A program made the position numbers and the translations under genes. A stretch of 63,457 nucleotides of DNA, the filler included, from Myxococcota bacterium (GTDB lineage: Bacteria > Myxococcota_C > UBA6777): NCBI GenBank assembly GCA_023150835.1. It is 3 parts of 3 records of this genome, joined end to end, with 100 filler letters (N's around TTAATTAATTAA, not from the genome) between each part and the next. Parts side by side here need not be neighbours in the genome. Positions count along the whole stretch, not along the records: positions 1 to 25,829 come from JAKLKB010000097.1; 2 more parts are not named here. One strand, written 5' to 3'. Under the pieces are notes generated by a model. The model worked only from the letters and a program-made list of their open reading frames with translations. It searched no databases and was not told the origin of the DNA. Below, piece after piece: positions 6,299 through 19,083 of this stretch. The stretch's first letter is position 1, and each line of letters starts with the position of its first letter.

Positions 6299-6467
6299 CG
6301 GTGAACATCCTCCATAACAAGATCGAGGGTCGGATTGGTTTGGCGCTCTTGTGGGGAAGAGAACGGCCTAGGGTACAACGCTCTTTGTCTTCTGCCAAGC
6401 CTGCTTTGCTCAAAATCAACGATCGCTGGGTGAAAAAAGGGCTTGTTGGGGGAGGCGATGGCCCAGT

Positions 6468-7223
6468 CTATTTCGTTTCGATGGAGTGGCGTGGTGGAGG
6501 GCGATGGGGTGCAACATGACGGATCTGCGGGGGCTTCTGTGTTTCTTGGATCGGGTGGTGTCTTTGCGTGGAGTGGCGGTGCGCTTTGTCTGTTTTTGGG
6601 GGCATGGGCTGTGCGGGGGTGAGGTGGCGTTGAAGAGCCTCAACGAGATCAGACAACAGTCGAGGTTGTGTGTGTAAATGAGGGAGCGGCGTCCATTGTC
6701 CTTGCGCATTGCGTGCAAGACGCGTGGGCAGATCGTGTTGTTGGAAAAGCTGATATTGTCGGTGTATCGGAGACCATCGCATCTTCCATAAACCGTAGGC
6801 CATGCCTGTGAGGTAGTAATGAGTGGGCTGGGGTTGCCAAGGAAGCGGGCGAGCCGCCTCAAGGTACACCAACACTTCTTCCCCTACAGCGATCTGACCT
6901 GCACCCGCAACGTGTGCTATTTGTGCGCCGATTCGACCGCCCAAACAACGCACCGTAAGGGTGTTTGTCAAGAGCTTTCCCTTGAAGATTCGGCGGATGC
7001 TCAAGGTGCTATCGGTGACGATGTATTGTCGCGGCCCGATCTTTCGGGCGATCTGAGACTGTACACGCCCCCAAACGATCAGCGCCGAACGTTCGACTTG
7101 TTCTCGTTCGCTGTAGGCGATTACCTGCGTTGCCTCGACGGGTGGTGCTTGTGTGAAAACAAAAAGACAAATTCCTGTGAACAAGAGGGTTCGTGCGAAA
7201 AGCGATGTATAAAATCTCATCAA
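6468..7223 (-). CDS. Secreted hypothetical protein
   Basis: Signal peptide (VEA-TQ); co-oriented with kinase and matrixin genes. Confidence 0.7.
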   Translation of the reverse strand: MMRFYTSLFARTLLFTGICLFVFTQAPPVEATQVIAYSEREQVERSALIVWGRVQSQIARKIGPRQYIVTDSTLSIRRIFKGKLLTNTLTVRCLGGRIGAQIAHVAGAGQIAVGEEVLVYLEAARPLPWQPQPTHYYLTGMAYGLWKMRWSPIHRQYQLFQQHDLPTRLARNAQGQWTPLPHLHTQPRLLSDLVEALQRHLTPAQPMPPKTDKAHRHSTQRHHPIQETQKPPQIRHVAPHRPPPRHSIETK

Positions 7224-9050: not shown

Positions 9051-12000
9051 ATGACGCAACAGCTTGATCGGTGGAAAAGGCAGAAGAAAAATGGCCTGTT
9101 TTTCTTCTGGTGGCTTGTGTGTGTGTCTTTGATGGGTGGGGGGATGGCTTGTGTTGACCCACAAAAAGAAGCGAAAAAGCTGACTCTCCGTTTGATCTAC
9201 TCAAAGAGCCACCTTCCAAGCGGCCAAAACGAACTGGGCGGCGTTGTCATCTCAAAGATATCGCTTTCGGATGGAAAACAAGAAGAAACAAAACTGACTC
9301 AAGGCATCAACGAGAACGTCAACTGTTCAGAGAATCACTCTCGTGGTGAAGCGATAAAGTATGTATTGCTTGCACAAAAAAAAGATGAGAGTGGTCACCT
9401 GCTTTTGGAGGGGGCAGTTCCTTTTTCAAAAGAGCTTTGCGAGTCCGGCACCGTCAAGATCGTGATGATGGTGCCCGAGCGTGTGGGCGAACTGGTGGTG
9501 GAAAACAATACGGGAACATCACAAAGCCCGATATTTGGGCCTGCTTCGGTCGGAGGCGTCTTGGGCCATGCTGGTGCGGCGTTTGGGGATGGTCGGGTCT
9601 TGGTCTCGGGAGGGATATCGGCTTTTTCGGGTGAGTTGAAGGTGCCGCCGTCTTTGTTGCGTCCACAAACACGTGGGGAGTACGGAGGGAGCTTTGCGGA
9701 GAAGGGGTGGGTGTATGATCCCGAAGCCGCGACCTTGCGTCCCGTGAGCGAAGCAACAGAGATCAAGGGAGCATTTGGGCGCGCCTTTCATTCGCTTACA
9801 GCGCAGGCCAACAAGGGATGGATGGTCGGGGGCTGGTCTTCTTCGACAGGATGGGCTTCTGTGCTTTCGTTGACGCTGCCTCCTGTCTCCTCAACAACGA
9901 TCCATGATCTCGGAGAGATGGCGATATCGGGGCGTTTGGAGCAGCCGTCAGCGCAGGCCGCAGGGCATTTGATCGTTGAAGGCAACGGCACGCTGGTGGC
10001 GTCGAAAGATCTCGCGCTGATCGGTGGGCAGAGTCCAGAAGGCCCAACAAACCTGCCCGATCCATCGCTACCTCCTTGTTTGGCGGGAGAAGAACAGATC
10101 TTCTTGACAATGCACGCATCAGCTATCCTTGAAAGCAGCCAAGAGGTCGTTGTTTCGGGTGGCGTGTGGAGCCGTCGTGACGGAAGTCTCTTGCCTCCGC
10201 GTTTTTCGAACATGATCTGGCGTGCGCCGTTTTCGCATCTTCAGGGTCAAACTCTTTTTTGCGCAACAACTCCTACGGCAGGAGATATCACGATCCGTGC
10301 GATCTTGAAGGACGGTAAGTATTTGTCGCTGGTACGCGGTGAGCTTCCCGAACGGGCGGGATGGGCGGGCCATTCGATGACGGCGATTGGCGATAAGATC
10401 CTTGTGTATGGGGGATTTTCGTTGCCTTTGGATGGTTGGCCTTGGCCTGAGGGGTCTGCTCCCTTGCGAGGAGAGTTTTTCCGTAACCATTTGTTTGTTC
10501 GTCAACGCGCATATTGGTTAACTGTAGAAAGTGGAAGATGGGTGTGGTCGCCCATTAATTTACAGGAAGGAAACCCAGAAGCAGGAAGCAATTGTCTGAT
10601 CTCGGATCTTGGCGCACGCGCAATGCACCAAGCGACGAGGCTTTTGGATGGTCGGATCTTGTTGTCAGGCGGGATCCGTTGCTTGCCTTCGGACACCACG
10701 ACCCCGCCTGCTTTGCGTTGCGGGATGGAAGAGATGTTGCATCCGCGCTCGGTGCTGTTGTATACGCCAAGAGTCTTTGCGCAGAAGGCCATACTTCCGA
10801 GCCGATTGGTGTATCAATGCGTCGGGGGTGGAGGAACGCACAAAGACGAATCACAAGATCGACCGATACCGCGCCTTTTCCACACAGCGACACGATTGTC
10901 TTCTGGACAGATCTTGTTGTGGGGAGGGCTGACTTCGGGGGGGCCGACTTCGGGCTTGCGTGTCGCAGGGCGCGTGGAACTGTTTTCGCCTCGGCTGCGC
11001 TTTGGGGCGTGGGTGGACGAAGTGCCTTCTCCCGAAACGACCGATGGTGGCCCACAAGAGTCTCCCGAAGAAAACATCCGCCCCGACGGTGGACCTCCCG
11101 AAACGAGTGAACCACCGAGCCCAGAACCGCAACCCGAAACGATCGGGCCGGATGCAACGCCTCCCCCTCATACGCTGATGCGGCATCTCGCTGTGAACGG
11201 CTATCTCCAAGGTCTTCGCACGTTGATCGGAGACAAACAAGAAATCCACTTATTTTTCGCGCTACAAGGCACGATTACGCGATTGGATGGTTCGGTTTTG
11301 GAATCGGAAGACACTGGGACAGCTTGGAGTTTGATGCGGGTGCGCTTTCTCGCGGATTTTAACAACAAGCGATGGGTGGAATACGACCACGCTCGGGTGA
11401 TCCCGCGCATCAAAGAGGCTTCACAATGGGATGTGGTGCTTGATCCGCAACATTCTGACCGCGCCGTTTTGGCCATCCGTTGCTCGGATATCCTGAAAAA
11501 AGATATCCTGATCTCTCCAAAAAATCCGACTCTTCTACCGTTGTGCAAGGTGGGCGGGGCGGTGGCCGAAGGACTCGCTGTCTTGCGTCTTGGCCTCGTG
11601 AAAGATGTGGATGGAGAATATTATCCATACTCACCTTTGTCTTCTTTTCTTGTGAGAGGAAATCTGGAGTTGCGTCGTCTTCGTGTGCGCGGAACGGGGC
11701 ACGCCGATCTGGTTTTGATCGGAAAAGGGGGGGGACCGATTTCTCTTGATGTACTCGGCTCCACGCAAAGCGTCTCCCTACCGACGGGTTCGTCCTATGC
11801 TTTGGTGCTACGATTCGGTAGCGCCGATCCACCACCGCTGGAATCGTTTTCGCTCGCCTTTTTTCGCTCGTTGCCGAGCAGTGGGTTTGGAAACGTGGTG
11901 GACTATGTGTGGATGAGGGATGCGACCGATACGAGGTGCTTGTTGGCGTCTGTGAAAGGGGCGGGAGTCTTTGAGGCGATACGTTGGGATGTTTCTTCGC

Positions 12001-13820
12001 TTTCGGTTCCTTTTTCTTTGGGTAATTTTGAAGGAGTCTCGCAAGAAGGCGTCTTTGTCGCTTGTTATAACGGGGCTTTTGATGCTACGCGGACGTGGAA
12101 GATGGTCTTGCACGATGCGACGAGCGTTAAGCGGCCAAAGCAAATCTTGGCGCTACAAAAGGCAGGAGAAACAAGGCTGTATATGTCCTTTGACGAAGAG
12201 CTGAATTCGACGAGCAAGCCCCATGTGTTGGTGTTTACGGACAAAGCGCAGCTCCTCGATTCGTGGCAGTTGAAAGATGGCAAACAAACCGAGATGGTGC
12301 TTCTTTCCGACCCGAACGGAGCGGGAGAAGTGCCGCTTTATCTGGCACAGACTTCTTCGGGGCTGCCTTGGCACGAGATGTTTTCTAGCCCGTCATGGTT
12401 TGTTTATGCGCCAGAGTTTCCCGCAACGCCCCAAGGTTACGCTTTTCCGATGAAACGTCCGCTGCCGATCCCTCCGGGTTATTGGGGAGATTCTTTTGTA
12501 GATAGGGCTTCGCTGGCCTCTCATGGTGGGATGTTGGCGGTTGCGGGGCTTCTTTCTATGAGCGAGAGTTTCGAGGCGAGTGCTTCTGGTTTGCGTCCTG
12601 CACAGGTGGATGGTCCCGGGATCTTTTTGTGGACGCGGGAGATGCTTTCGAGCGCGTCTGCACCCCAGTGCCAACCCACTCAACTCGGTCCGATCGCGGC
12701 CTGCCGATGCGAAGAAGTCTGTCGTCATTGTTGTGGCCCGTTGGGGCTTTGTCGTCAGACAGGGGAGAGCACAAAGCTCGATCCGCTCCCCTTTTTCTGC
12801 GGAAATCCTGCGATAATCGGGAAAGTCTGTACGATCTGCGACAAGCAAACCGCCGATGGCTGTACAGCTTCGGGGTTGTGCTCTTGTGGTGGTAGGGCGG
12901 CTTGTTCACCGCAGCAACGATGCGAGGGGGCACTTGGAGCGAAGGTCTGCCGCGATTGTAAGCCTCGGTCAGTGACGATCTCTGTGAACGGAAGCGCAAT
13001 CAGTGGCATCTTGTCCGTGAAGTCAGGCGAGGATCTGACGGTGAGCGTAAGCGGATATCCGCATCGTGTACCCGAAATAACCGCAGCTACGCATCAATCG
13101 TTGGTGGTCGGGATCTGGCGGGAAGGCTACGGGGTGGAGGCTTGGGGGTGTGCTTACCACAAAGAGATCAAGACGATGGATTGTTCGGAGACCTTGCCCG
13201 TGTCTTTTTCGACTTCGCTGAATCGAGGATCTCGCTCAACCGTCCCGCTGAAAGCGCCTCTTTGGCTCTCGTCTGGGGGCGCTCAATACACTGTTTTGGC
13301 GATCCCGATGGTGGGGAATTTCCCAAGTTGTCAAGATGCCATGAACGCGTTTGAGTCGATGCCGTCGAGCGAATTGATTCAGAAAGGGAGCATCGGAGGC
13401 TTAAATGTCGAGTCTTCGGCGTGTACAGGGACATCCGTTGCTGTGAGCAGCGCGTCACTAGCGGATGCGAACAAACAAGCTCTGACATGGCCCGCACGGG
13501 TGAAGGCAGGGGGCATTCTTCATGTCTCTCTTGCTGTGTTGACAGATTCTTCTCTGAAGGTTTGGTTCTCTTTTACTTTGACGGACGAATCGGGATATCC
13601 GAAGGATATCGTGTGTGTGGGGTTGGGTGCTGGAAACTATTGTTCGACAATCACCCCCAATCAGTCCGGTTTGGTCCCCTATCATTTTCCTTTAGGATTA
13701 AAGGCGGGCCGTTATTTTTTCCGTGTCGCCGAAAAAAGAACCGCGATCTGCGAGACGGCGGCGACAAAATTGTCGTTCCCTCGGTGGGCGACTTTTGGTG
13801 AAGTGATCCTCGAACCTTGA
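9051..13820 (+). CDS. Large Kelch-repeat putative lipoprotein (1589 aa)
   Basis: Lipobox-like GMAC; Kelch-type motifs MHQATRLLDGRILLSGG, FHTATRLSSGQILLWGG, GHSMT; Cys-rich segment. Confidence 0.75.
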   Translation: MTQQLDRWKRQKKNGLFFFWWLVCVSLMGGGMACVDPQKEAKKLTLRLIYSKSHLPSGQNELGGVVISKISLSDGKQEETKLTQGINENVNCSENHSRGEAIKYVLLAQKKDESGHLLLEGAVPFSKELCESGTVKIVMMVPERVGELVVENNTGTSQSPIFGPASVGGVLGHAGAAFGDGRVLVSGGISAFSGELKVPPSLLRPQTRGEYGGSFAEKGWVYDPEAATLRPVSEATEIKGAFGRAFHSLTAQANKGWMVGGWSSSTGWASVLSLTLPPVSSTTIHDLGEMAISGRLEQPSAQAAGHLIVEGNGTLVASKDLALIGGQSPEGPTNLPDPSLPPCLAGEEQIFLTMHASAILESSQEVVVSGGVWSRRDGSLLPPRFSNMIWRAPFSHLQGQTLFCATTPTAGDITIRAILKDGKYLSLVRGELPERAGWAGHSMTAIGDKILVYGGFSLPLDGWPWPEGSAPLRGEFFRNHLFVRQRAYWLTVESGRWVWSPINLQEGNPEAGSNCLISDLGARAMHQATRLLDGRILLSGGIRCLPSDTTTPPALRCGMEEMLHPRSVLLYTPRVFAQKAILPSRLVYQCVGGGGTHKDESQDRPIPRLFHTATRLSSGQILLWGGLTSGGPTSGLRVAGRVELFSPRLRFGAWVDEVPSPETTDGGPQESPEENIRPDGGPPETSEPPSPEPQPETIGPDATPPPHTLMRHLAVNGYLQGLRTLIGDKQEIHLFFALQGTITRLDGSVLESEDTGTAWSLMRVRFLADFNNKRWVEYDHARVIPRIKEASQWDVVLDPQHSDRAVLAIRCSDILKKDILISPKNPTLLPLCKVGGAVAEGLAVLRLGLVKDVDGEYYPYSPLSSFLVRGNLELRRLRVRGTGHADLVLIGKGGGPISLDVLGSTQSVSLPTGSSYALVLRFGSADPPPLESFSLAFFRSLPSSGFGNVVDYVWMRDATDTRCLLASVKGAGVFEAIRWDVSSLSVPFSLGNFEGVSQEGVFVACYNGAFDATRTWKMVLHDATSVKRPKQILALQKAGETRLYMSFDEELNSTSKPHVLVFTDKAQLLDSWQLKDGKQTEMVLLSDPNGAGEVPLYLAQTSSGLPWHEMFSSPSWFVYAPEFPATPQGYAFPMKRPLPIPPGYWGDSFVDRASLASHGGMLAVAGLLSMSESFEASASGLRPAQVDGPGIFLWTREMLSSASAPQCQPTQLGPIAACRCEEVCRHCCGPLGLCRQTGESTKLDPLPFFCGNPAIIGKVCTICDKQTADGCTASGLCSCGGRAACSPQQRCEGALGAKVCRDCKPRSVTISVNGSAISGILSVKSGEDLTVSVSGYPHRVPEITAATHQSLVVGIWREGYGVEAWGCAYHKEIKTMDCSETLPVSFSTSLNRGSRSTVPLKAPLWLSSGGAQYTVLAIPMVGNFPSCQDAMNAFESMPSSELIQKGSIGGLNVESSACTGTSVAVSSASLADANKQALTWPARVKAGGILHVSLAVLTDSSLKVWFSFTLTDESGYPKDIVCVGLGAGNYCSTITPNQSGLVPYHFPLGLKAGRYFFRVAEKRTAICETAATKLSFPRWATFGEVILEP

Positions 13821-13868
13821 CGCTCGTTTTTGAGGGAACGGGCCAAGGCCGAGATTTGGGGGGAACTG

Positions 13869-13983
13869 ATACGATATCCGAGTGATGTGTACACGAAGGG
13901 CCGTACGTAAACGCCCTATTATTGGGCAGCCACGGGGGGCTGCCCCTACGTTTTTACGATCACGCGCCCTGCGGATTTCGTAT
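13869..13983 (-). repeat. REP-like family A element
   Basis: Core is the reverse complement of GTAGGGGCAGCCCCCCGTGGCTGCCC (13924-13949) with conserved flanks. Confidence 0.8.
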
Positions 13984-14008
13984 GATGCCGATGTTTGGGG
14001 GGGAAATG

Positions 14009-14044
14009 AAAAAAGCCGCTTTCTTCACGAAAGCGGCTTTTTTT
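14009..14044. terminator. Bidirectional intrinsic terminator downstream of the tRNA-Pro cluster
   Basis: aaaaaagccgctttc-ttcac-gaaagcggcttttttt perfect hairpin with A and T tracts. Confidence 0.88.
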
Positions 14045-14045
14045 G

Positions 14046-14119
14046 TCGGCGTGGCAGGATTTGAACCTGCGACCTCTACTACCCCAAAGTAGAGCGCTAC
14101 CAGGCTGCGCTACACGCCG
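14046..14119 (-). tRNA. tRNA-Pro(GGG)
   Basis: Cloverleaf; anticodon arm CTACT-TTGGGGT-AGTAG; GGTTCAAATCC T arm. Confidence 0.95.
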
Positions 14120-14140
14120 AGGGGGAACGAAGAATTGAAG

Positions 14141-14214
14141 TCGGCGTGGCAGGATTTGAACCTGCGACCCCTTGCTCCCGAAGCAAGTGCGCTACCAGGC
14201 TGCGCTACACGCCG
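14141..14214 (-). tRNA. tRNA-Pro(CGG)
   Basis: Anticodon arm CTTGC-TTCGGGA-GCAAG. Confidence 0.95.
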
Positions 14215-14237
14215 AAACCAAAGAACGCGGGAAAGAG

Positions 14238-14314
<77 letters not shown>

Positions 14315-14338
14315 AATGATGGAACCGAAAGAAACTTG

Positions 14339-14412
14339 TCGGCGTGGCAGGATTTGAACCTGCGACCTCTACTACCCCAAAGTAGAGCGCTACCAGGCTG
14401 CGCTACACGCCG
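14339..14412 (-). tRNA. tRNA-Pro(GGG), identical to 14046-14119
   Basis: Same sequence as the first copy. Confidence 0.95.
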
Positions 14413-14426
14413 AAACACAGAGCGAT

Positions 14427-14455
14427 GTTTTAGTAGGCGATCTTGCGTTTGTCAA
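14427..14455 (-). promoter_or_regulatory. Putative sigma70 promoter for the tRNA-Pro cluster
   Basis: TTGACA-N17-TAAAAC ending about 15 nt upstream of the first tRNA-Pro. Confidence 0.55.
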
Positions 14456-14608
14456 GCGGTCTTTTTGTACCCTCCATTAGATCGTTGATCCACAAAGGAA
14501 AGTTTTTTAGTTGACACGCACAGACACCGTCGTTCTAGGGTTTCTGTACGCCTTCTCTGTCGGTTAGGGACACCCGAAGGAGTTAGGAGCAAGGTCACTG
14601 TTGGCAGA

Positions 14609-14682
14609 TGCCGCAACCAGGAGTCGAACCTGGACCTGTGGCTTCGGAGGCCACCGTGCACCATCCGGTACACCATTGCGGC
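14609..14682 (-). tRNA. tRNA-Arg(CCG), atypical D arm
   Basis: GTGGC-CTCCGAA-GCCAC anticodon arm; D arm can form 7 bp (GTGTACC-GGAT-GGTGCAC). Confidence 0.85.
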
Positions 14683-14756
14683 GAAACAAGTGTTTTCGTT
14701 GGGTGGTTGTAGATCATGGCGAACAAAAAGTCCAGCATTATTTTTTGTGTGCTGTG

Positions 14757-14827
14757 TGGACCGACAGGGAGTCGAACCCTGATCTTCGGCGTGCAAAACC
14801 GAAATCCTTCCATTGAACGATCAGCCC
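14757..14827 (-). tRNA. tRNA-Ala(TGC)
   Basis: TCGGT-TTTGCAC-GCCGA anticodon arm; G3:U70 identity pair present. Confidence 0.85.
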
Positions 14828-14830
14828 AAG

Positions 14831-14904
14831 TGCATCCGACGGGACTCGAACCCGCGCACACTGATTTGAAAGACCAGCGGCTCAACCTATTCGCCTTCAG
14901 ATGC
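14831..14904 (-). tRNA. tRNA-Glu(TTC), atypical (A8)
   Basis: CTGGT-CTTTCAA-ATCAG anticodon arm; GGTTCGAGTCC T arm. Confidence 0.82.
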
Positions 14905-14931
14905 GTTGTGTGGCGCGCACGGGCGCGTTTG

Positions 14932-15006
14932 TGCTGGAGACGGGATTCGAACCCGCAACCTCCTGAACCTCAGTCAGGTACCTCTACCGATTTGGGCTAC
15001 TCCAGC
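14932..15006 (-). tRNA. tRNA-Leu(GAG) with short variable arm
   Basis: CCTGA-CTGAGGT-TCAGG; variable region only AGGTT; A73. Confidence 0.85.
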
Positions 15007-15037
15007 GGTCGATTCAGAATCATCGAACAAGGGCTTG

Positions 15038-15111
15038 TGCTGTCGGTGGGATTCGAACCCACAACCTCCTGCTTTTGAAACAGGCTCCTCTGCCGATTGG
15101 GTCACGACAGC
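15038..15111 (-). tRNA. tRNA-Leu(CAA) with short variable arm
   Basis: CCTGT-TTCAAAA-GCAGG; variable region AGGTT; A73. Confidence 0.85.
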
Positions 15112-15165
15112 AAAAAAGAAACCAATCGACCTCTGCTATCAAAAAACGAGTCGGGTACAGTTTCG

Positions 15166-15285
15166 CCAAAAATCCGTGCTCGCGTCTTCTCAAGCGGAGC
15201 AGATGTTGGTTTAAAAACTCTGATCGTTCCGCCGATGGTCAAGGGAGCTGTGCTCCCTTGCGGGGTGTGGGGCAGCGTCCCACAA
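15166..15285 (+). repeat. Dispersed repeat family B, located inside the tRNA array
   Basis: ccgtgctcgcg...tcaagcgg...aaaaact...gtcaagggagc...gcggggtgtggggca...cccaca, homologous to 48554-48677, 51429-51551 and 63194-63314. Confidence 0.75.
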
Positions 15286-15347
15286 AAACCATCGAAATGT
15301 ACCCATTTTATAAGAAAAGAAAACACGAGAAAAAAATACACAAGTGA

Positions 15348-15421
15348 TGCGAACTGTGGGAGTCGAACCCACAACCCTCTGGTTCTAAGCCAGAGACCTC
15401 TACCGATTGGGCTAAGTTCGC
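15348..15421 (-). tRNA. tRNA-Leu(TAG) with short variable arm
   Basis: TCTGG-CTTAGAA-CCAGA; variable region GGGTT; A73. Confidence 0.85.
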
Positions 15422-15424
15422 GAT

Positions 15425-15495
15425 TGCGGCGCGGGGGACTTGAACCCCCACAACAGGCATGGCGTACCTGTAGGCTACCTTTACCTCAGCGCCGC
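15425..15495 (-). tRNA. tRNA-Gly(GCC), atypical (A32/C33, A73)
   Basis: GCG acceptor start; anticodon arm CAGGT-ACGCCAT-GCCTG; GGTTCAAGTCC T arm. Confidence 0.72.
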
Positions 15496-15501
15496 AGGTT
15501 G

Positions 15502-15574
15502 GGAGATCGAGGGGAATCGAACCCCCGTTTCAGGTTCCACAGACCCGCGTGTTGACCGTTACACCACGATCTCC
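15502..15574 (-). tRNA. tRNA-His(GTG)
   Basis: CGGGT-CTGTGGA-ACCTG; G-1:C73 identity pair. Confidence 0.88.
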
Positions 15575-15590
15575 GTCTTGACGAGTATTT

Positions 15591-15662
15591 CGAGGCCGAC
15601 GGGAGTCGAACCCGCTAACACCTGATAGACAGTCAGGCAGCCCACCGTGAGCTTTCGACCCC
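15591..15662 (-). tRNA. tRNA-Asp(GTC), atypical (A8, U37, extendable D stem)
   Basis: CCTGA-CTGTCTA-TCAGG; G73; GGTTCGACTCC T arm. Confidence 0.8.
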
Positions 15663-15673
15663 AGAGAATGCGC

Positions 15674-15706
15674 AAAAAAAAACCGCCTGTGTGTTCACGC
15701 AGGCGG
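15674..15706 (-). terminator. Intrinsic terminator (attenuator) immediately upstream of the tRNA array
   Basis: CCGCCTG-cgtgaacaca-CAGGCGG followed by T9; T tract ends 11 nt before tRNA-Asp; leader stop codon lies inside the hairpin. Confidence 0.85.
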
Positions 15707-16156
15707 TGGTCGGACGTACGGTTCGTCGGACAGATCCTGCGGTCTATCGGGTGCTTTGGCCTCATCCAAGCGGGCAAGGGTCAGATCGCCTGCGAAGGAA
15801 AGATCGGCGAGGAGCAACGCAGCATGAAGTTCTTGCGCGGCATGAAGTTCTTGTGCGGCATGAAGTTCTTGTGCGGCATGAAGTTCTTGTGCATCGACGT
15901 GCGGTGGTGCTTGGGGGGCCAAGCCAGCGCCGTTTTGGATGTGTTGAGGCGCAAGCGGGTTGTGTTTGGGTTGTGCGTGTTCGGGTTGAGCTGTTAGGCC
16001 GAGCGATAGGCCGAGCGATAGGTCGAGCGACAAGCCGAGTGAAAAATGGGGCAAAGCAGCGGCCTCGCTTGGGATACGGATAGGCTGGATCTTGATGTGG
16101 ACGGGGGGTTGGGGAGCGGTGCGGGGGAGCGATTGGAAGAATTTTTTGCGAGTCAT
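15695..16156 (-). CDS. Putative leader peptide (153 aa) ending RPPPA-stop
   Basis: ATG preceded by aaagga/gggaa; in-frame 12-bp (SLGL) and 18-bp (AQELHA) repeats; overlaps the terminator; alternative ATG at 16174. Confidence 0.6.
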   Translation of the reverse strand: MTRKKFFQSLPRTAPQPPVHIKIQPIRIPSEAAALPHFSLGLSLDLSLGLSLGLTAQPEHAQPKHNPLAPQHIQNGAGLAPQAPPHVDAQELHAAQELHAAQELHAAQELHAALLLADLSFAGDLTLARLDEAKAPDRPQDLSDEPYVRPPPA

Positions 16157-16203
16157 GGTTCCCAGTCCTTTCATCGGGTGAGGGTGTTTGTGGTTTGTGG
16201 CTT

Positions 16204-16230
16204 GCTGACGTGTGAGAAAAAAGAAAGTTC
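16204..16230 (-). promoter_or_regulatory. Possible ECF-sigma-type promoter for the leader/tRNA array
   Basis: GAACTT-N16-TCAGC about 50 nt upstream of the leader ATG; resembles sigmaE-type consensus. Confidence 0.3.
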
Positions 16231-16476
16231 AGATTGTTTTCTTTTTGTTTCGATCTTGGCTACGAAAGAGTCTTCGATGGAGTTCGTTTTTTTCTTTTGT
16301 TTTTTTTGAAGTATTTGGTTTTCGCTTGAAGCGTGGTTTGCGCTTACGGGGGTAGAAAAGAAAAGTTCGTGAGGAGGGAAAGTTTTTAGGGGATGGGTTG
16401 AGGGAAGCGTTGCGGGGAAGGGCATCTCGGGATATAAGGTGGGTTTGTGTGATCTGGGTTTTGGAGAGGATGAGGG

Positions 16477-19083
16477 ATGGAGGATCGGATGCAGTTGTGG
16501 GAAGCGTTTTTGCGGGTGGTGAGCGCGGAGTTACAGCCGAAGATGCCGGCATGGTATGCGTCTTATCGGGGGGCGCAAGGGCGCGAAGATATCGAAGGGT
16601 TCTTGGTGTACATGGAGGCGGAAGGTCTGTTGACAAGGCCGATGGTGCAGTCGTTGCGGATCGCTTGGCAGGCCGCGTCATTTCAGTCCCGTGTTGCGGG
16701 AGGCTTGGAGGCTGGTGAGGACGATGAATTAGACGGCGCGACGATGATGGGGGCGGATTACGTTTCGCCGTTCGCGGCGTCGAAGCTCACAGAGGCATCG
16801 ACGGTGGCTCCAAAGGTTGCGGTGCCTGATCCCAAGGCTGCGGTGGTGATGGCCAAAAATAGCGTATCTTCGGGGAGTTTGGCGAAGGTATCAAAAGCAG
16901 CAGAAAAGGAAGAAGATGAGGCTCCTGTGGAGGCTTTTTTGCCGACGTTGATGGCGCAACCCAAGGCGCAAGGGGCAAAAGCCCCATCCAAGGGGCAAAA
17001 GCCGGGGCGACGTGCGGTGCAGGAGGGCGAGTGGGTGTTGGAAGACCCACATCATCGGGTTGTGGAGTCGATCGGTGAAGGGGGGATGGGGTACGTTTTT
17101 AATGCGTGGGAAGACACGTTAGGACGAAACGTAGCGTTCAAGCAATTGAAGCCGACGTTGCGCCACGATCAAGAAGCGATGGGGCGATTTTTGCGAGAAG
17201 CGCGGGTGACTGCGCAGCTTTCGCACCCGAGTATCGTGCCTGTGTATCAGTTGGTGAAAGGGGTGGATGGCCTGCCTGCGTACACGATGAAGATCATCGA
17301 GGGCGATACCTTGGCGTCTTTGATCTTGTCAGCGCGCAAAGCGTACGAAAAAGGAGAGGAGATACCGGAGTCGTTGTCGTTGGAGCAGCGGCTGGAGCAT
17401 TTTTTGAAGGTGTGCGATGCGATGGCTTATGCCCACAGCAAGGGGATCTTGCATCGCGATCTCAAGCCCGGGAACGTGATGATCGGGCCATTTGGGGAGG
17501 TGTATGTGGTGGATTGGGGGGTTGCGCGCTTGATGCAAGAAGCGCAAGACCAGATCTCGATCATGCCGTCGGATGGTGGGGAGTTTTCAACGCGGATCGG
17601 TCAATTGATCGGCACGCCCAACTATATGTCGCCCGAACAAGCGCGGGGAGCGATCGATCAGATGGATGGCCGCAGCGATCTGTTTGCGCTTGGGGCGATC
17701 CTGTTTGAGTTGGTGTTTTTGAAAAAAGCGTTCGAGGGCGATAACCTTGTGGTGGTCTTGAACAAGGTGAATACGGGAGATATCGCGCCGATGGTTCCGA
17801 ACTATCCGAAGCAAGAAAAAATCCCGTCGGATCTGGTCGCGATCATCCGAAAAGCTTGTGCGTTGGAGATCAAAGATCGGTATGCGTCGGTGCAAGATCT
17901 CGCGGAGGACTTGCGGCACTTTTTGCGAAACGAGCCGATCAAAGCAGCGCCGTGGTCGGCGTTTCGGCGCATCGGTCGATTTTTGGCGCGTCGTCGGGCG
18001 GTGTTGTTTGCGTTGGTGGTGATCTTGGTGTTGCTGGGGGCAGGGAGCAACTTTTGGTATCTAAGCCGACAGCAAGAGGCCAAGCTGGAAGAACGCAAAG
18101 AACAAGCCGAGCTATTGCGCCGATTGACGGAGCTTTACCAGAGCGGGCTGAAGCTGGATCGCTTTTTTTACCAAGCCGAGCGGCTGTTGGGTCAGTTGGC
18201 GGCCTCTGCGCAGATCGCGTTGCTGCCGAGCGAAACGCAAAAGCCGCAGAAGTTTTATTTGAGCGAAGATTTTACGCCCAAAGATCTACAAAAATCGACG
18301 TTTTACCAAGACTCTGTTAGCCTCGAATGGCCTGTGATCAAGCTGGCTCCGAGCGCAAAACAGCGCTTTGATCGGGCCAAAAAAGATCGGCCATTTCAGG
18401 CTCTTTTGCAACGGCTGGTTTTGTTGCGTGGGGCCTTGTATGACACGGTGTTTCAAAGTGAAGAGATCTCGGTAGATGGGGCCAAAAAGCGAAGCCATGA
18501 GGTGATGTTGCGCAGCGGTTTTCCGATCTCGTCGTCTTTTGTGGCGACGCAGGAAGGGATCGAGTTGAGCTATCCGGGACGAAGCGGATATCCCGACGAG
18601 TACGATCCAAGAGAGCGGGACTGGTTCACGCAGGCTTCGGCGCGTCGGGGATTTTTGTGGAGCGATCCGTTTGTGAGCGTCCACAAGTCGGCACAAGCGA
18701 CGTTGGTATGTAGTACGGCGATCTTGGACAAAGACAAGCGCTTTTTGGGGGCAGCGGGGATCAAGATCCGACTGAACGAGATGACCGCGCATCTTGGGCA
18801 GATCGCACGTGGGCTGCCGTGGGCGCGAGATGCGGTGCTGGTGGATGCGCGTGGGCGTGTGATGGCGCGTGCTTTTGTGCAACTGCCGCGTTTTGTGCAG
18901 AGAACCACGAAGAAGAGCTTGGATCTTCCGCGTTTTCACAAGGAAGCGTTGTTGAAACAGATGGCAAAAAAGAACAAGACTTCTTATCTCGTGGAACGCC
19001 AAGGGGTGGTCTCCGAGTTGTGGGCGTATACGCCTTTGGAATCCGTAGGTTGGTATCTTGTGGTGAGTTCGGAGTGGCGCTAA
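16477..19083 (+). CDS. Transmembrane Ser/Thr kinase with extracytoplasmic Cache-like sensor domain
   Basis: GEGGMG, HRDLKPGN, DWG, GTPNYMSPEQ; TM helix; YDPRERDWF...WSDPF dCache-like motif. Confidence 0.9.
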   Translation: MEDRMQLWEAFLRVVSAELQPKMPAWYASYRGAQGREDIEGFLVYMEAEGLLTRPMVQSLRIAWQAASFQSRVAGGLEAGEDDELDGATMMGADYVSPFAASKLTEASTVAPKVAVPDPKAAVVMAKNSVSSGSLAKVSKAAEKEEDEAPVEAFLPTLMAQPKAQGAKAPSKGQKPGRRAVQEGEWVLEDPHHRVVESIGEGGMGYVFNAWEDTLGRNVAFKQLKPTLRHDQEAMGRFLREARVTAQLSHPSIVPVYQLVKGVDGLPAYTMKIIEGDTLASLILSARKAYEKGEEIPESLSLEQRLEHFLKVCDAMAYAHSKGILHRDLKPGNVMIGPFGEVYVVDWGVARLMQEAQDQISIMPSDGGEFSTRIGQLIGTPNYMSPEQARGAIDQMDGRSDLFALGAILFELVFLKKAFEGDNLVVVLNKVNTGDIAPMVPNYPKQEKIPSDLVAIIRKACALEIKDRYASVQDLAEDLRHFLRNEPIKAAPWSAFRRIGRFLARRRAVLFALVVILVLLGAGSNFWYLSRQQEAKLEERKEQAELLRRLTELYQSGLKLDRFFYQAERLLGQLAASAQIALLPSETQKPQKFYLSEDFTPKDLQKSTFYQDSVSLEWPVIKLAPSAKQRFDRAKKDRPFQALLQRLVLLRGALYDTVFQSEEISVDGAKKRSHEVMLRSGFPISSSFVATQEGIELSYPGRSGYPDEYDPRERDWFTQASARRGFLWSDPFVSVHKSAQATLVCSTAILDKDKRFLGAAGIKIRLNEMTAHLGQIARGLPWARDAVLVDARGRVMARAFVQLPRFVQRTTKKSLDLPRFHKEALLKQMAKKNKTSYLVERQGVVSELWAYTPLESVGWYLVVSSEWR

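Follow-up and report, generated by a model that had tools for sequence, protein, structure and literature searches.

How can a set of tRNA genes be expressed when the first of them begins 11 nt after the T-run of an intrinsic terminator, and why should an open reading frame (ORF) of 153 codons end inside that same terminator? Both questions are raised by a locus on the minus strand of a 63,457-nt stretch of DNA (the window, in what follows), which joins three parts of the genome of a Myxococcota bacterium (GenBank assembly GCA_023150835.1), the locus itself lying in the part taken from JAKLKB010000097.1 (positions 1 to 25,829). The analysis presented here suggests that the ORF, at 15695-16156, is probably the translated leader of a ribosome-dependent transcription attenuator that senses the supply of cognate tRNAs. 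The elements involved, in the direction of transcription, are the following:

16345 to 16368, minus strand: second, upstream copy of a promoter-like motif, GAAC-N16-CGTA, to which no RNA contig extends
16261 to 16285, minus strand: promoter-like GAAC-N17-CGTA after an A-rich tract, with a start expected near 16254
16166 to 16170, minus strand: Shine-Dalgarno (SD)-like AAGGA, 9 nt ahead of the conserved ATG
15695 to 16156, minus strand: leader ORF of 153 codons plus TGA, with conserved ends and a variable, repeat-rich middle
15819 to 15908, minus strand: four 18-nt tandem repeats coding for AQELHA, inside the leader ORF
15787 to 15794, minus strand: antiterminator candidate A, CGCAGGCG, complementary to 15705-15698
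15736 to 15742, minus strand: antiterminator candidate B, CCGCAGG, about 27 nt ahead of the hairpin
15698 to 15712, minus strand: R-P-P-P-A codons (CGA CCA CCG CCT GCG), the Pro and Ala codons forming the 5′ arm of the terminator
15674 to 15707, minus strand: intrinsic terminator, a hairpin of 8+2 bp (15707-15682) followed by T9 (15682-15674), recognised by its fold and its conservation
15663 to 15673, minus strand: spacer of 11 nt from the T-run to tRNA-Asp, too short for a promoter
15591 to 15662, minus strand: tRNA-Asp, the first gated gene (ARAGORN)
14609 to 15662, minus strand: gated unit of nine tRNAs (ARAGORN and Rfam)

Direct reading of the sequence, together with ARAGORN, agrees with the anatomy given in a preliminary description of the locus, namely an ORF of about 153 codons with its stop inside a hairpin followed by nine Ts, and a tRNA-Asp 11 nt further on with no room for a promoter in between. 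The 3′ end of the ORF reads GTC CGA CCA CCG CCT GCG TGA (VRPPPA-stop; 15715-15695). There are two possible ATGs, the first of which (16174) would give 159 aa and the second (16156), which is the conserved start, 153 aa; in the resulting peptide the motif occupies R149-P-P-P152-A153-stop, with an RxPP core near the C-terminus. The 5′ arm of the hairpin, ACCGCCTG (15707-15700), pairs with the 3′ arm, CAGGCGGT (15689-15682), and the TGA (15697-15695) sits within the loop. The hairpin has an energy of -16.2 kcal/mol, and its 8 pairs show probabilities of 0.76-1.0 in contexts of up to 600 nt. A simple terminator scan, limited to loops of 8 nt, omitted this hairpin because its loop is longer. A search of the 200 nt ahead of tRNA-Asp for sigma-70-like promoters was negative, even with a relaxed threshold.

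The same arrangement is found in close relatives of the window: the ORF, the hairpin, T9 and tRNA-Asp are all kept in L001, a contig of a metagenome-assembled genome (G001), and in the metagenome contig L002, and the differences within hairpin and T9 are confined to the loop. A wider survey covered the GTDB phylum of G001, which comprises only five genomes. The upstream regions of 40 tRNA loci in G002-G005 were picked from Rfam tRNA matches; ARAGORN located tRNAs in 39 of them, and for 35 of these 39 the sequence available upstream extends to 450 nt or more. When all were scanned by the same criteria for terminators (a hairpin of -15 kcal/mol or stronger followed by at least T6, at most 200 nt from the first tRNA), nine terminator-preceded clusters were detected among the 39 (L041, L044, L046, L047, L056, L057, L059, L065 and L070), and all nine have an ATG-initiated ORF of 59-93 aa whose stop lies 27-34 nt before the hairpin. 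The sequence GAAC-N16/17-CGTA lies 332-436 nt before the hairpin in eight of the nine; with a further locus in G001 (L031) included, nine out of ten other loci have the motif. Moreover, an SD-like element of the AAGG/AGGA type (CAGGA in L057) is found no more than 18 nt before the ATG of all ten other leaders, mostly at about -14 to -10. The order of the module (GAAC-N16/17-CGTA, SD and ATG, small ORF, strong hairpin with T-run, tRNAs) is therefore shared by 10 other clusters of four related genomes.

The locus L031, which precedes a Lys-Asn-Arg-Met array in G001, is the closest in design. Its 72-aa ORF (MTRQHNQTQVLP...) ends in CCG TCT GGG TGA with the TGA in the loop, and its hairpin is paralogous to that of the window, having the same GTGAAC loop start and one compensatory change of a stem pair from C-G to T-A. 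In the window and in L002 the stop also lies in the loop (a gap of -13), unlike in the nine relatives. The C-terminus of the L031 leader is QKPSG, without PPP, which indicates that the stop-in-loop arrangement is conserved in this lineage and the PPP is not. Where the preliminary description had suggested a check of related tRNA arrays for an ORF ending in R-P-P-(P) over a terminator, the module of leader ORF and terminator is indeed present at 10 other clusters, and the proposed ending is not general, L031 closing with KPSG.

The composition of these leaders points to what they would sense. For 11 loci, the residues of the leader that are cognate to the downstream tRNAs were counted against a background of the 35 long ORFs of the window, the leader ORFs having been picked by position ahead of any look at their composition. 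In all 11 leaders the amino acids of the array that follows are over-represented (z 1.8-5.7, with a sum of 40.8), and the other five frames give summed z values of -2.5, -2.2, +1.6, -5.2 and -2.6. When leaders were re-paired with other arrays, the true sum was not reached in any of 7484 combinations (mean -7.2, maximum 16.8), and a codon-level version, based on wobble-readable codons, gives a sum of 40.9, which again none of 5766 re-pairings reaches. In the leader of the window, the cognate residues number 107 of 152 (background 0.53; z 4.2), an enrichment confined to this frame; five of the six residues of the AQELHA unit, whose copy number varies among the window, L001 and L002, are cognate to tRNAs of the array. 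Other examples are L057 (Cys-Arg-Arg), where Cys or Arg make up 17 of 58 residues with a background of 0.08, L044 (Phe-Gln-Leu-Met), with 27 of 58 cognate residues and a background of 0.19, and L047 (Tyr-Lys-Ile-Ala-Val-Gly), with 40 of 61 and a background of 0.36. As judged from sequence, these putative leader-ORF attenuators before tRNA clusters, with leaders matched to the tRNAs they would gate, are a conserved class.

Alternative pairings that could oppose the terminator were also detected. Each ORF of the nine relatives closes with codons that form a strand resembling the 3′ arm of the terminator and complementary to its 5′ arm, and the C-termini of the corresponding peptides (GSGGW, GSGG, GSDG, SGGFRC, DPPGFAL and others) would simply be the plain translation of this pairing strand. 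An exact-word search for antiterminators was only marginal, and the energy of the duplex with the 5′ arm was compared instead with that obtained in 1000 dinucleotide shuffles of the 107 nt upstream. At 6 of the 11 loci the duplex is matched by at most four shuffles, that is, in five of the nine relatives with the common geometry (none in L056 and L057, 1 in L065, 3 in L047 and 4 in L044) and in the window, where CGCAGGCG at 15794-15787, already proposed as an antiterminator in the preliminary description, forms a duplex of -16.6 kcal/mol that is equalled by 3 of the 1000 shuffles. In a 109-nt context, and before the 3′ arm exists, pairing with CGCAGGCG is the minimum-energy fold; once the 3′ arm has been made the terminator state is favoured. 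The second site put forward there was given as 15737-15742; its boundaries are better drawn as CCGCAGG at 15742-15736, and its location does match that of the antiterminator strand in the related leaders. Its duplex (-10.8 kcal/mol) is used by pre-3′-arm folds in longer contexts. In L044 and L056, the antiterminator belongs to the minimum-energy fold of the whole RNA. When four loci are aligned, 93% of the cells of the antiterminator helix are paired (20-41% when slid), as are 100% of those of the terminator, each helix having 2 compensatory pairs; a shuffle control for covariation in these four sequences is not significant (190 and 61 of 500). Rfam families, T-boxes included, gave no match to the leader of the window or to nine related leaders. 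A small local hairpin is seen in the minimum-energy folds of most loci (the window, L044, L046, L047, L056 and L065) within the 27-nt spacer between the strand and the terminator (15735-15708 in the window). Such a hairpin could serve for pausing or as a junction, and could account for the nucleotide conservation of the DEPYV codons in the window.

A word-indexed search retrieved three homologues of the leader ORF, and an exhaustive profile search reconfirmed two of these and added P0005; a repetitive match of 2270 aa in the profile search was disregarded. The five aligned sequences span 105-153 aa; compared with the ORF of the window, the others show an alignment identity of 50-84% (48-76% by BLASTP). 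They have in common an N-terminus of the type MTRKKFFQSLP and a C-terminal block of 36 residues, and differ in the length and repeat number of the middle; all five end in DEPYVRPPPA-stop. Compared with L002, pN/pS is 0/0.09 in the first 16 codons, 0.136/0.209 in the middle and 0.011/0.063 in the last 40 codons, and every indel is a multiple of three. Judged by these substitutions, the leader ORF is a genuine conserved frame, and both of its ends are under purifying selection. Searches of Pfam, NCBIfam, PHROGs and the ESM Atlas revealed no family or neighbour for it, nor did tblastn against phages and plasmids, and no relatives were found in viral contigs. Profile searches of the five genomes of the phylum and of 400 relatives located the leader ORF in G001 only, a weak match in G041 being at chance level. 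By eye only, an N-terminal pattern MTR....Q.LP is common to the leaders of the window, L044 and L031.

Transcription of the leader would start from the GAAC-N17-CGTA motif, which we take to resemble the promoters of extracytoplasmic function (ECF) sigma factors. A simple promoter scan of 13500-17000 gave nothing; a pattern search made afterwards revealed the motif. Among 20 upstream regions (about 12 kb in total), 11 contain it on the tRNA strand, with 12 occurrences altogether, and none has it on the other strand, the expectation from 500 shuffles being a mean of 0.46 and a maximum of 3. The nearer copy in the window is kept in L001 and L002, where only the spacer has changed, and it lies 129 nt from the ATG, as compared to 97-126 nt for the other leaders. 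RNA coverage was obtained from Logan contigs of three metatranscriptome runs from one activated-sludge sample, which give neither strands nor transcript ends. Three contigs cover the leader (15709-16165, 15744-16266 and 15751-16254, with depths of 10.7, 16.7 and 17.1); the depth elsewhere is 0-1.1 in the tRNA-Asp/His bin, about 2-4 in the rest of the array and 0 in most of the neighbouring divergent kinase gene, and the leader is therefore transcribed above its surroundings. Contig ends are found at 16254 and 16266, the former coinciding with the expected start. In run X1, no contig covers 15526-15708; tRNAs are poorly captured in RNA libraries of this kind, and the contigs carry no weight on termination.

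The motif is not restricted to these leaders. In G002-G005, GAAC-N16/17-CGTA also precedes tRNA clusters lacking a leader ORF and terminator, some of them with nearer TTGACA promoters (L036, L037, L038, L042, L043, L049, L060, L062, L063, L067 and L074); three of these share a motif distance of 187-188 nt. Stable-RNA genes of the phylum may use the motif generally, as a second promoter or as a binding site. At L036 (G002:C1; a Phe-Trp-Phe-Phe-Trp array), excluded from the count of terminator-preceded clusters for having no hairpin and T-run within the limits of the scan, the motif is followed by a 33-aa ORF that ends in FPFPTFFRWCA and is rich in Phe and Trp, like its array, which may represent a further form of the same control. 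The locus L063 (G005:C121:35682-36561) carries eleven tRNA-Met-like genes of about 71 nt, one of them with an unassignable anticodon, and the motif 461 nt upstream; neither a terminator nor a leader ORF was found there.

Taken together, sequence and comparison show the anatomy of the leader, a conserved frame, a recurrent module, alternative pairings that covary and leaders that match their arrays in frame, and from these we infer the promoter and the control of termination by translation. The idea at the core of the preliminary description, a translation-sensing leader and a terminator gating a tRNA operon, gains strong comparative support from the recurrence, the compensatory pairs and the in-frame enrichment. 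The attenuator would control read-through from the putative GAAC-N17-CGTA promoter (16285-16261) into the tRNA genes past the terminator. As the leader is built largely of cognate codons, the transit speed of the first ribosome would report the supply of aminoacyl-tRNA, and the position of this ribosome would decide whether the hairpin (15707-15682, then U9) folds while the polymerase is on the U-tract. In the common geometry, a ribosome at the stop codon would hide the antiterminator strand, the terminator would form and transcription would end; a ribosome delayed on hungry codons would leave the strand free, resulting in read-through and more tRNA. Such a design would amount to negative feedback on tRNA supply. 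The window, in common with one paralogous leader in the nearest genome, has a variant in which the ORF is about 13 codons longer and runs across the spacer and the 5′ arm. With the 5′ arm coding and the stop in the loop, occupancy of RPPPA-stop and folding of the terminator would be mutually exclusive: a ribosome with PPP, Ala or the stop in its decoding sites would cover the whole 5′ arm, and CGCAGGCG and CCGCAGG would act as antiterminators when the ribosome lags far behind. For the window as well, by analogy with the relatives, the preferred outcome would be that slow translation leads to more read-through.

Several points weigh against this attenuator, which as a whole is a computational proposal. 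In the window, once the 3′ arm has been made, the antiterminator state is 7.9 kcal/mol weaker than the terminator state, and a significant antiterminator duplex is missing in 5 of the 11 loci (L070, L046, L041, L059 and L031, matched by 95, 103, 134, 411 and 526 of 1000 shuffles, respectively). Synonymous codon choice within the cognate amino acids is no better matched to the anticodons of the array than expected; none of the six Arg codons of the window leader is CGG, the codon of the Arg(CCG) tRNA in the array, and Gln is enriched although the array has no tRNA-Gln. Some of the loci are related to each other (L041 with L059, L044 with L046, L047 with L056), so that the independent cases are nearer seven than 11, and hhalign comparisons among leaders of different arrays are not significant (E values of 0.041, 0.34 and 0.69). 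The length of the window leader, 153 codons, far exceeds that of classical leaders, and its middle evolves almost neutrally. Conservation of the overlap between ORF and terminator beyond the genus is seen in protein sequence alone (P0003/P0006 and P0005). Finally, the RNA contigs fall 33-75 nt short of where the 3′ end is expected and not one of them extends into the tRNAs, which makes them uninformative in this respect.

The best surviving alternative, though a doubtful one, is the model of the preliminary description itself, in which the array is off by default and a ribosome stalled on PPP, either in an EF-P-dependent manner or through a shortage of Pro-tRNA, covers the 5′ arm and switches the array on. 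The P-site of a ribosome on PPP does fall inside the 5′ arm, the RPPPA-stop is invariant in five of five homologues, its CCA, CCG and CCT codons are read by the three Pro isoacceptors of the array, and RPPP occurs 0 times in the 19,407 residues of the long ORFs of the window. In addition, RPPP is an arrest-type motif of the RxPP form, and one study reports that the A132P variant of ApdP retains arrest (PMC12992588). However, the paralogous stop-in-loop leader of L031 ends in QKPSG, and the C-termini of the nine other leaders follow the RNA strand, so that PPPA may be a by-product of the CCGCC stem sequence, readable as its mere translation. Against such a reading of PPPA counts the fact that the DEPYVR codons lie outside the stem and are yet invariant across the five aligned leaders. 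The tRNA-Pro genes, moreover, own a promoter-like site, and under coupling of ribosome and polymerase the 5′ arm would be occupied at the U-tract with or without a stall.

Coupling of this kind is the basis of another explanation, of opposite sign, in which, following the example of pyrBI and pyrE, the terminator would act unless the leading ribosome keeps close behind the polymerase and onto the 5′ arm, so that efficient translation would turn the tRNAs on and slow translation would turn them off. The ORF enters the hairpin and stops in the loop in the two leaders of the G001 lineage, L031 lacks a significant antiterminator (526 of 1000 shuffles), and in the window the terminator is thermodynamically dominant, all of which would suit it. 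We nevertheless consider it unlikely, as it implies a positive feedback in which less tRNA leads to less tRNA transcription, and the geometry of the nine relatives predicts the opposite sign. The window, too, has a statistically unusual upstream complement of the 5′ arm, and the enrichment in cognate codons is most easily explained by a sensor of hunger, such as the attenuator proposed here.

A more conventional possibility is that the ORF is just a gene for a small protein and has a terminator of its own; the tRNAs would then be expressed by leaky read-through or by a promoter that went unrecognised, and neither the composition of the ORF nor its overlap with the terminator would have a role in regulation. 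Both ends of the protein are conserved and the gene is transcribed above its neighbours; no known family was matched, so a function in trans is conceivable, and bacterial stop codons that overlap a terminator stem are no rarity. Such a gene would leave unexplained, however, the small ORF before the hairpin in all 10 other terminator-preceded clusters, the pairing of the ORF end with the terminator arm, with its compensatory changes, and the in-frame match to the amino acids of its own array, which makes this explanation improbable. Equally remote is an arrest peptide of the RAPP-like type that, like SecM, ApdA and ApdP, would monitor a cellular activity through its N-terminal part, here with terminator read-through as output: its RxPP lies one residue before the stop, it has a conserved N-terminal motif and its conserved C-terminal 36 residues approach the length of the ribosome exit tunnel, but no signal-like or transmembrane-like segment was found in the leader peptide, judged by the Kyte-Doolittle profile only (maximum 19-residue mean of 1.39 overall and 0.52 in the N-terminal part), and the motif is missing from the paralogous leader of L031.

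As for the genes under control of the putative attenuator, the order of the gated unit is Asp(GTC), His(GTG), Gly(GCC), Leu(TAG), Leu(CAA), Leu(GAG), Glu(TTC), Ala(TGC) and Arg(CCG). The last of them (14609-14682, minus strand) was missed by ARAGORN and detected by Rfam with 57.3 bits, its anticodon loop being read as CCG (Arg). The array continues with a second set of genes:

14427 to 14455, minus strand: sigma-70-like promoter, TTGACA-17-TAAAAC, 14 nt ahead of the first tRNA-Pro
14045 to 14412, minus strand: four tRNA-Pro genes (GGG, TGG, CGG, GGG), 65-68 bits in Rfam
14009 to 14043, either strand: bidirectional intrinsic terminator closing the array, an inverted repeat with 15-nt arms that are 100% complementary

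The total is thus 13 tRNAs (nine gated and four Pro), 12 of them found by ARAGORN and one by Rfam alone. The hairpin and T-run that close the array indicate that this organism does use such terminators. Given their scores and their own promoter-like site, the tRNA-Pro genes may form a housekeeping unit into which transcription of the gated unit also reads through. Sigma-70-like sites at most 200 nt from the first tRNA were found in 7 of 20 clusters of relatives, the closest at 11-73 nt, and these include several clusters without this leader.

The content of the array differs between close relatives, as indicated by the tRNA-Leu(TAA) that L002 carries (6334-6491) at the place of a 236-nt spacer with a repeat fragment in the window (15112-15347). 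There is one tRNA-Pro in G001 and four in the window, two of the latter being 100% identical copies of 78 nt located about 293 nt apart. A dispersed repeat of about 120 nt lies at 13865-13985, with a partial copy at 15237-15289 and another occurrence in L031 at about 895-945; it has inverted ends (ATACGATATCCG / CGGATTTCGTAT) and a central GC hairpin with a T-run. Its summed RNA depth is 1100-2080 (80-120 for the partial copy), with many loose ends into other contigs, which suggests a terminator element similar to miniature inverted-repeat transposable elements (MITEs) or repetitive extragenic palindromes (REPs) and shared by many loci or by many organisms. On either side of the array lies a gene of the plus strand, one for a Cys-rich protein of 1589 aa with Kelch repeats (9051-13820) and the other for the divergent Ser/Thr kinase (16477-19083), which has a C-terminal dCache domain and also adjoins the locus in L001 and L002.

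A further question is related to the atypical nature of the gated tRNAs. Those for Leu measure 74-76 nt and lack a long variable arm, and the gated tRNA-Asp reaches only 31 bits in Rfam, and this to the tRNA-Sec model. Outside the array, G001 has a tRNA-Asp(GTC) of 75 nt with 73 bits, tRNAs for Leu (TAG, CAA and CAG) of 85 nt, and copies of Gly(GCC) and Glu(TTC); tRNAs for His, Pro and Ala(TGC) were not seen outside the array in this genome, which is incomplete. The earlier idea of spare tRNAs is therefore supported only in part. It could be speculated that attenuators of decoder supply are spread across this small phylum and that, in the window, the gated tRNAs, with their Leu members without long variable arm and their poorly scoring Asp member, are a backup set that deploys itself automatically, a picture that we regard as rather unlikely. 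Such a set would be insensitive to whatever removes the canonical tRNAs, for instance the tRNA-cleaving toxins of competitors or phages. Depletion of the array's own tRNAs would stall the leader ribosome and open the terminator, and replacement tRNAs would be transcribed.

The matching of supply and demand for individual tRNAs has largely been put down to controls that act globally, growth rate and the stringent response among them, and the only inducible tRNA array studied to our knowledge, that of Anabaena, uses a repressor. Among the literature matches listed, with subscription journals and supplements lying outside the search, there was no description of a leader-ORF attenuator before tRNA genes, and two surveys of tRNA arrays mention neither attenuators nor leader peptides nor upstream ORFs (uORFs). 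If the proposed mechanism is true, it would represent a direct, isoacceptor-specific feedback from decoding to tRNA transcription, in which the attenuation of amino-acid operons is applied to the decoders themselves. It would also offer a functional handle on the puzzling arrays of supernumerary and atypical tRNAs, together with a signature to search for regulated ones, namely an array-matched ORF that ends at a terminator or 27-34 nt before it.

Among known systems, the trp, his, leu, pheA, thr and ilv attenuators of enterobacteria have translated leaders of about 14-30 codons with short runs of a single residue. The module described here shares with them a codon-enriched leader, a terminator before the genes and a candidate alternative pairing that would depend on the position of the ribosome. 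Unlike them, it would regulate tRNA genes instead of biosynthetic enzymes, so that the decoder itself would be restored; its leaders have 59-153 codons with several amino acids enriched throughout, two alternative helices are evident and no 1:2 pause helix was identified, and the ORF of the window extends into the terminator. In the pyrBI and rph-pyrE operons of E. coli, UTP is sensed through polymerase pausing and coupling results in read-through, the upstream ORF of pyrE being a full-length gene. The window and L031 resemble them in that the ORF reaches or crosses the hairpin and a close ribosome would block its folding, and differ in the enrichment in cognate codons and in the geometry of the relatives, which predicts that stalling leads to read-through. 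T-boxes bind tRNA directly and without translation, and control genes for aminoacyl-tRNA synthetases and amino acids; they are likewise leaders in cis that sense the charging of specific tRNAs and control a terminator, whereas the leader proposed here would depend on translation and regulate tRNA genes.

Parallels in terms of signal are the vmlR (PMC9226507) and topAI (PMC12121999) uORFs, which are reported to be attenuators that sense translation inhibitors through ribosome stalling. In them, as proposed here, a ribosome stalled on the leader ORF shifts the choice between termination and antitermination, and the output is a response to translation stress; their cargo is resistance or toxin-antitoxin genes and their short leaders are not matched in composition. 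With respect to the end of the window leader, Ala-to-Pro variants of ApdA and ApdP (RPPP) keep partial to nearly full arrest, the x of RxPP being A, G, S or P, according to PMC12992588, and PMC10987492 lists RPPP among the RAPP-like motifs and describes an LPPP peptide that stalls with its third codon in the P-site. The leader of the window is like these peptides in that it is small, precedes the regulated genes and carries Arg-x-Pro-Pro at its very C-terminus, and unlike them in that it has no N-terminal localisation signal, its output would be transcription termination and the leader of L031 lacks the motif. Finally, translation inhibitors induce the trn L-array of Anabaena sp. PCC 7120, as stated in PMC8421152, in which the terms terminator, attenuat- and leader have 0 occurrences, and its repressor, TrcR (PMC10272220), is a ribbon-helix-helix protein that binds repeats over the -10 box. 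Both cases would set a housekeeping complement of tRNAs beside an inducible array that answers to impaired translation; unlike the repressor of Anabaena, however, the sensor proposed here would lie in cis and be specific to the amino acids of the array that it controls.

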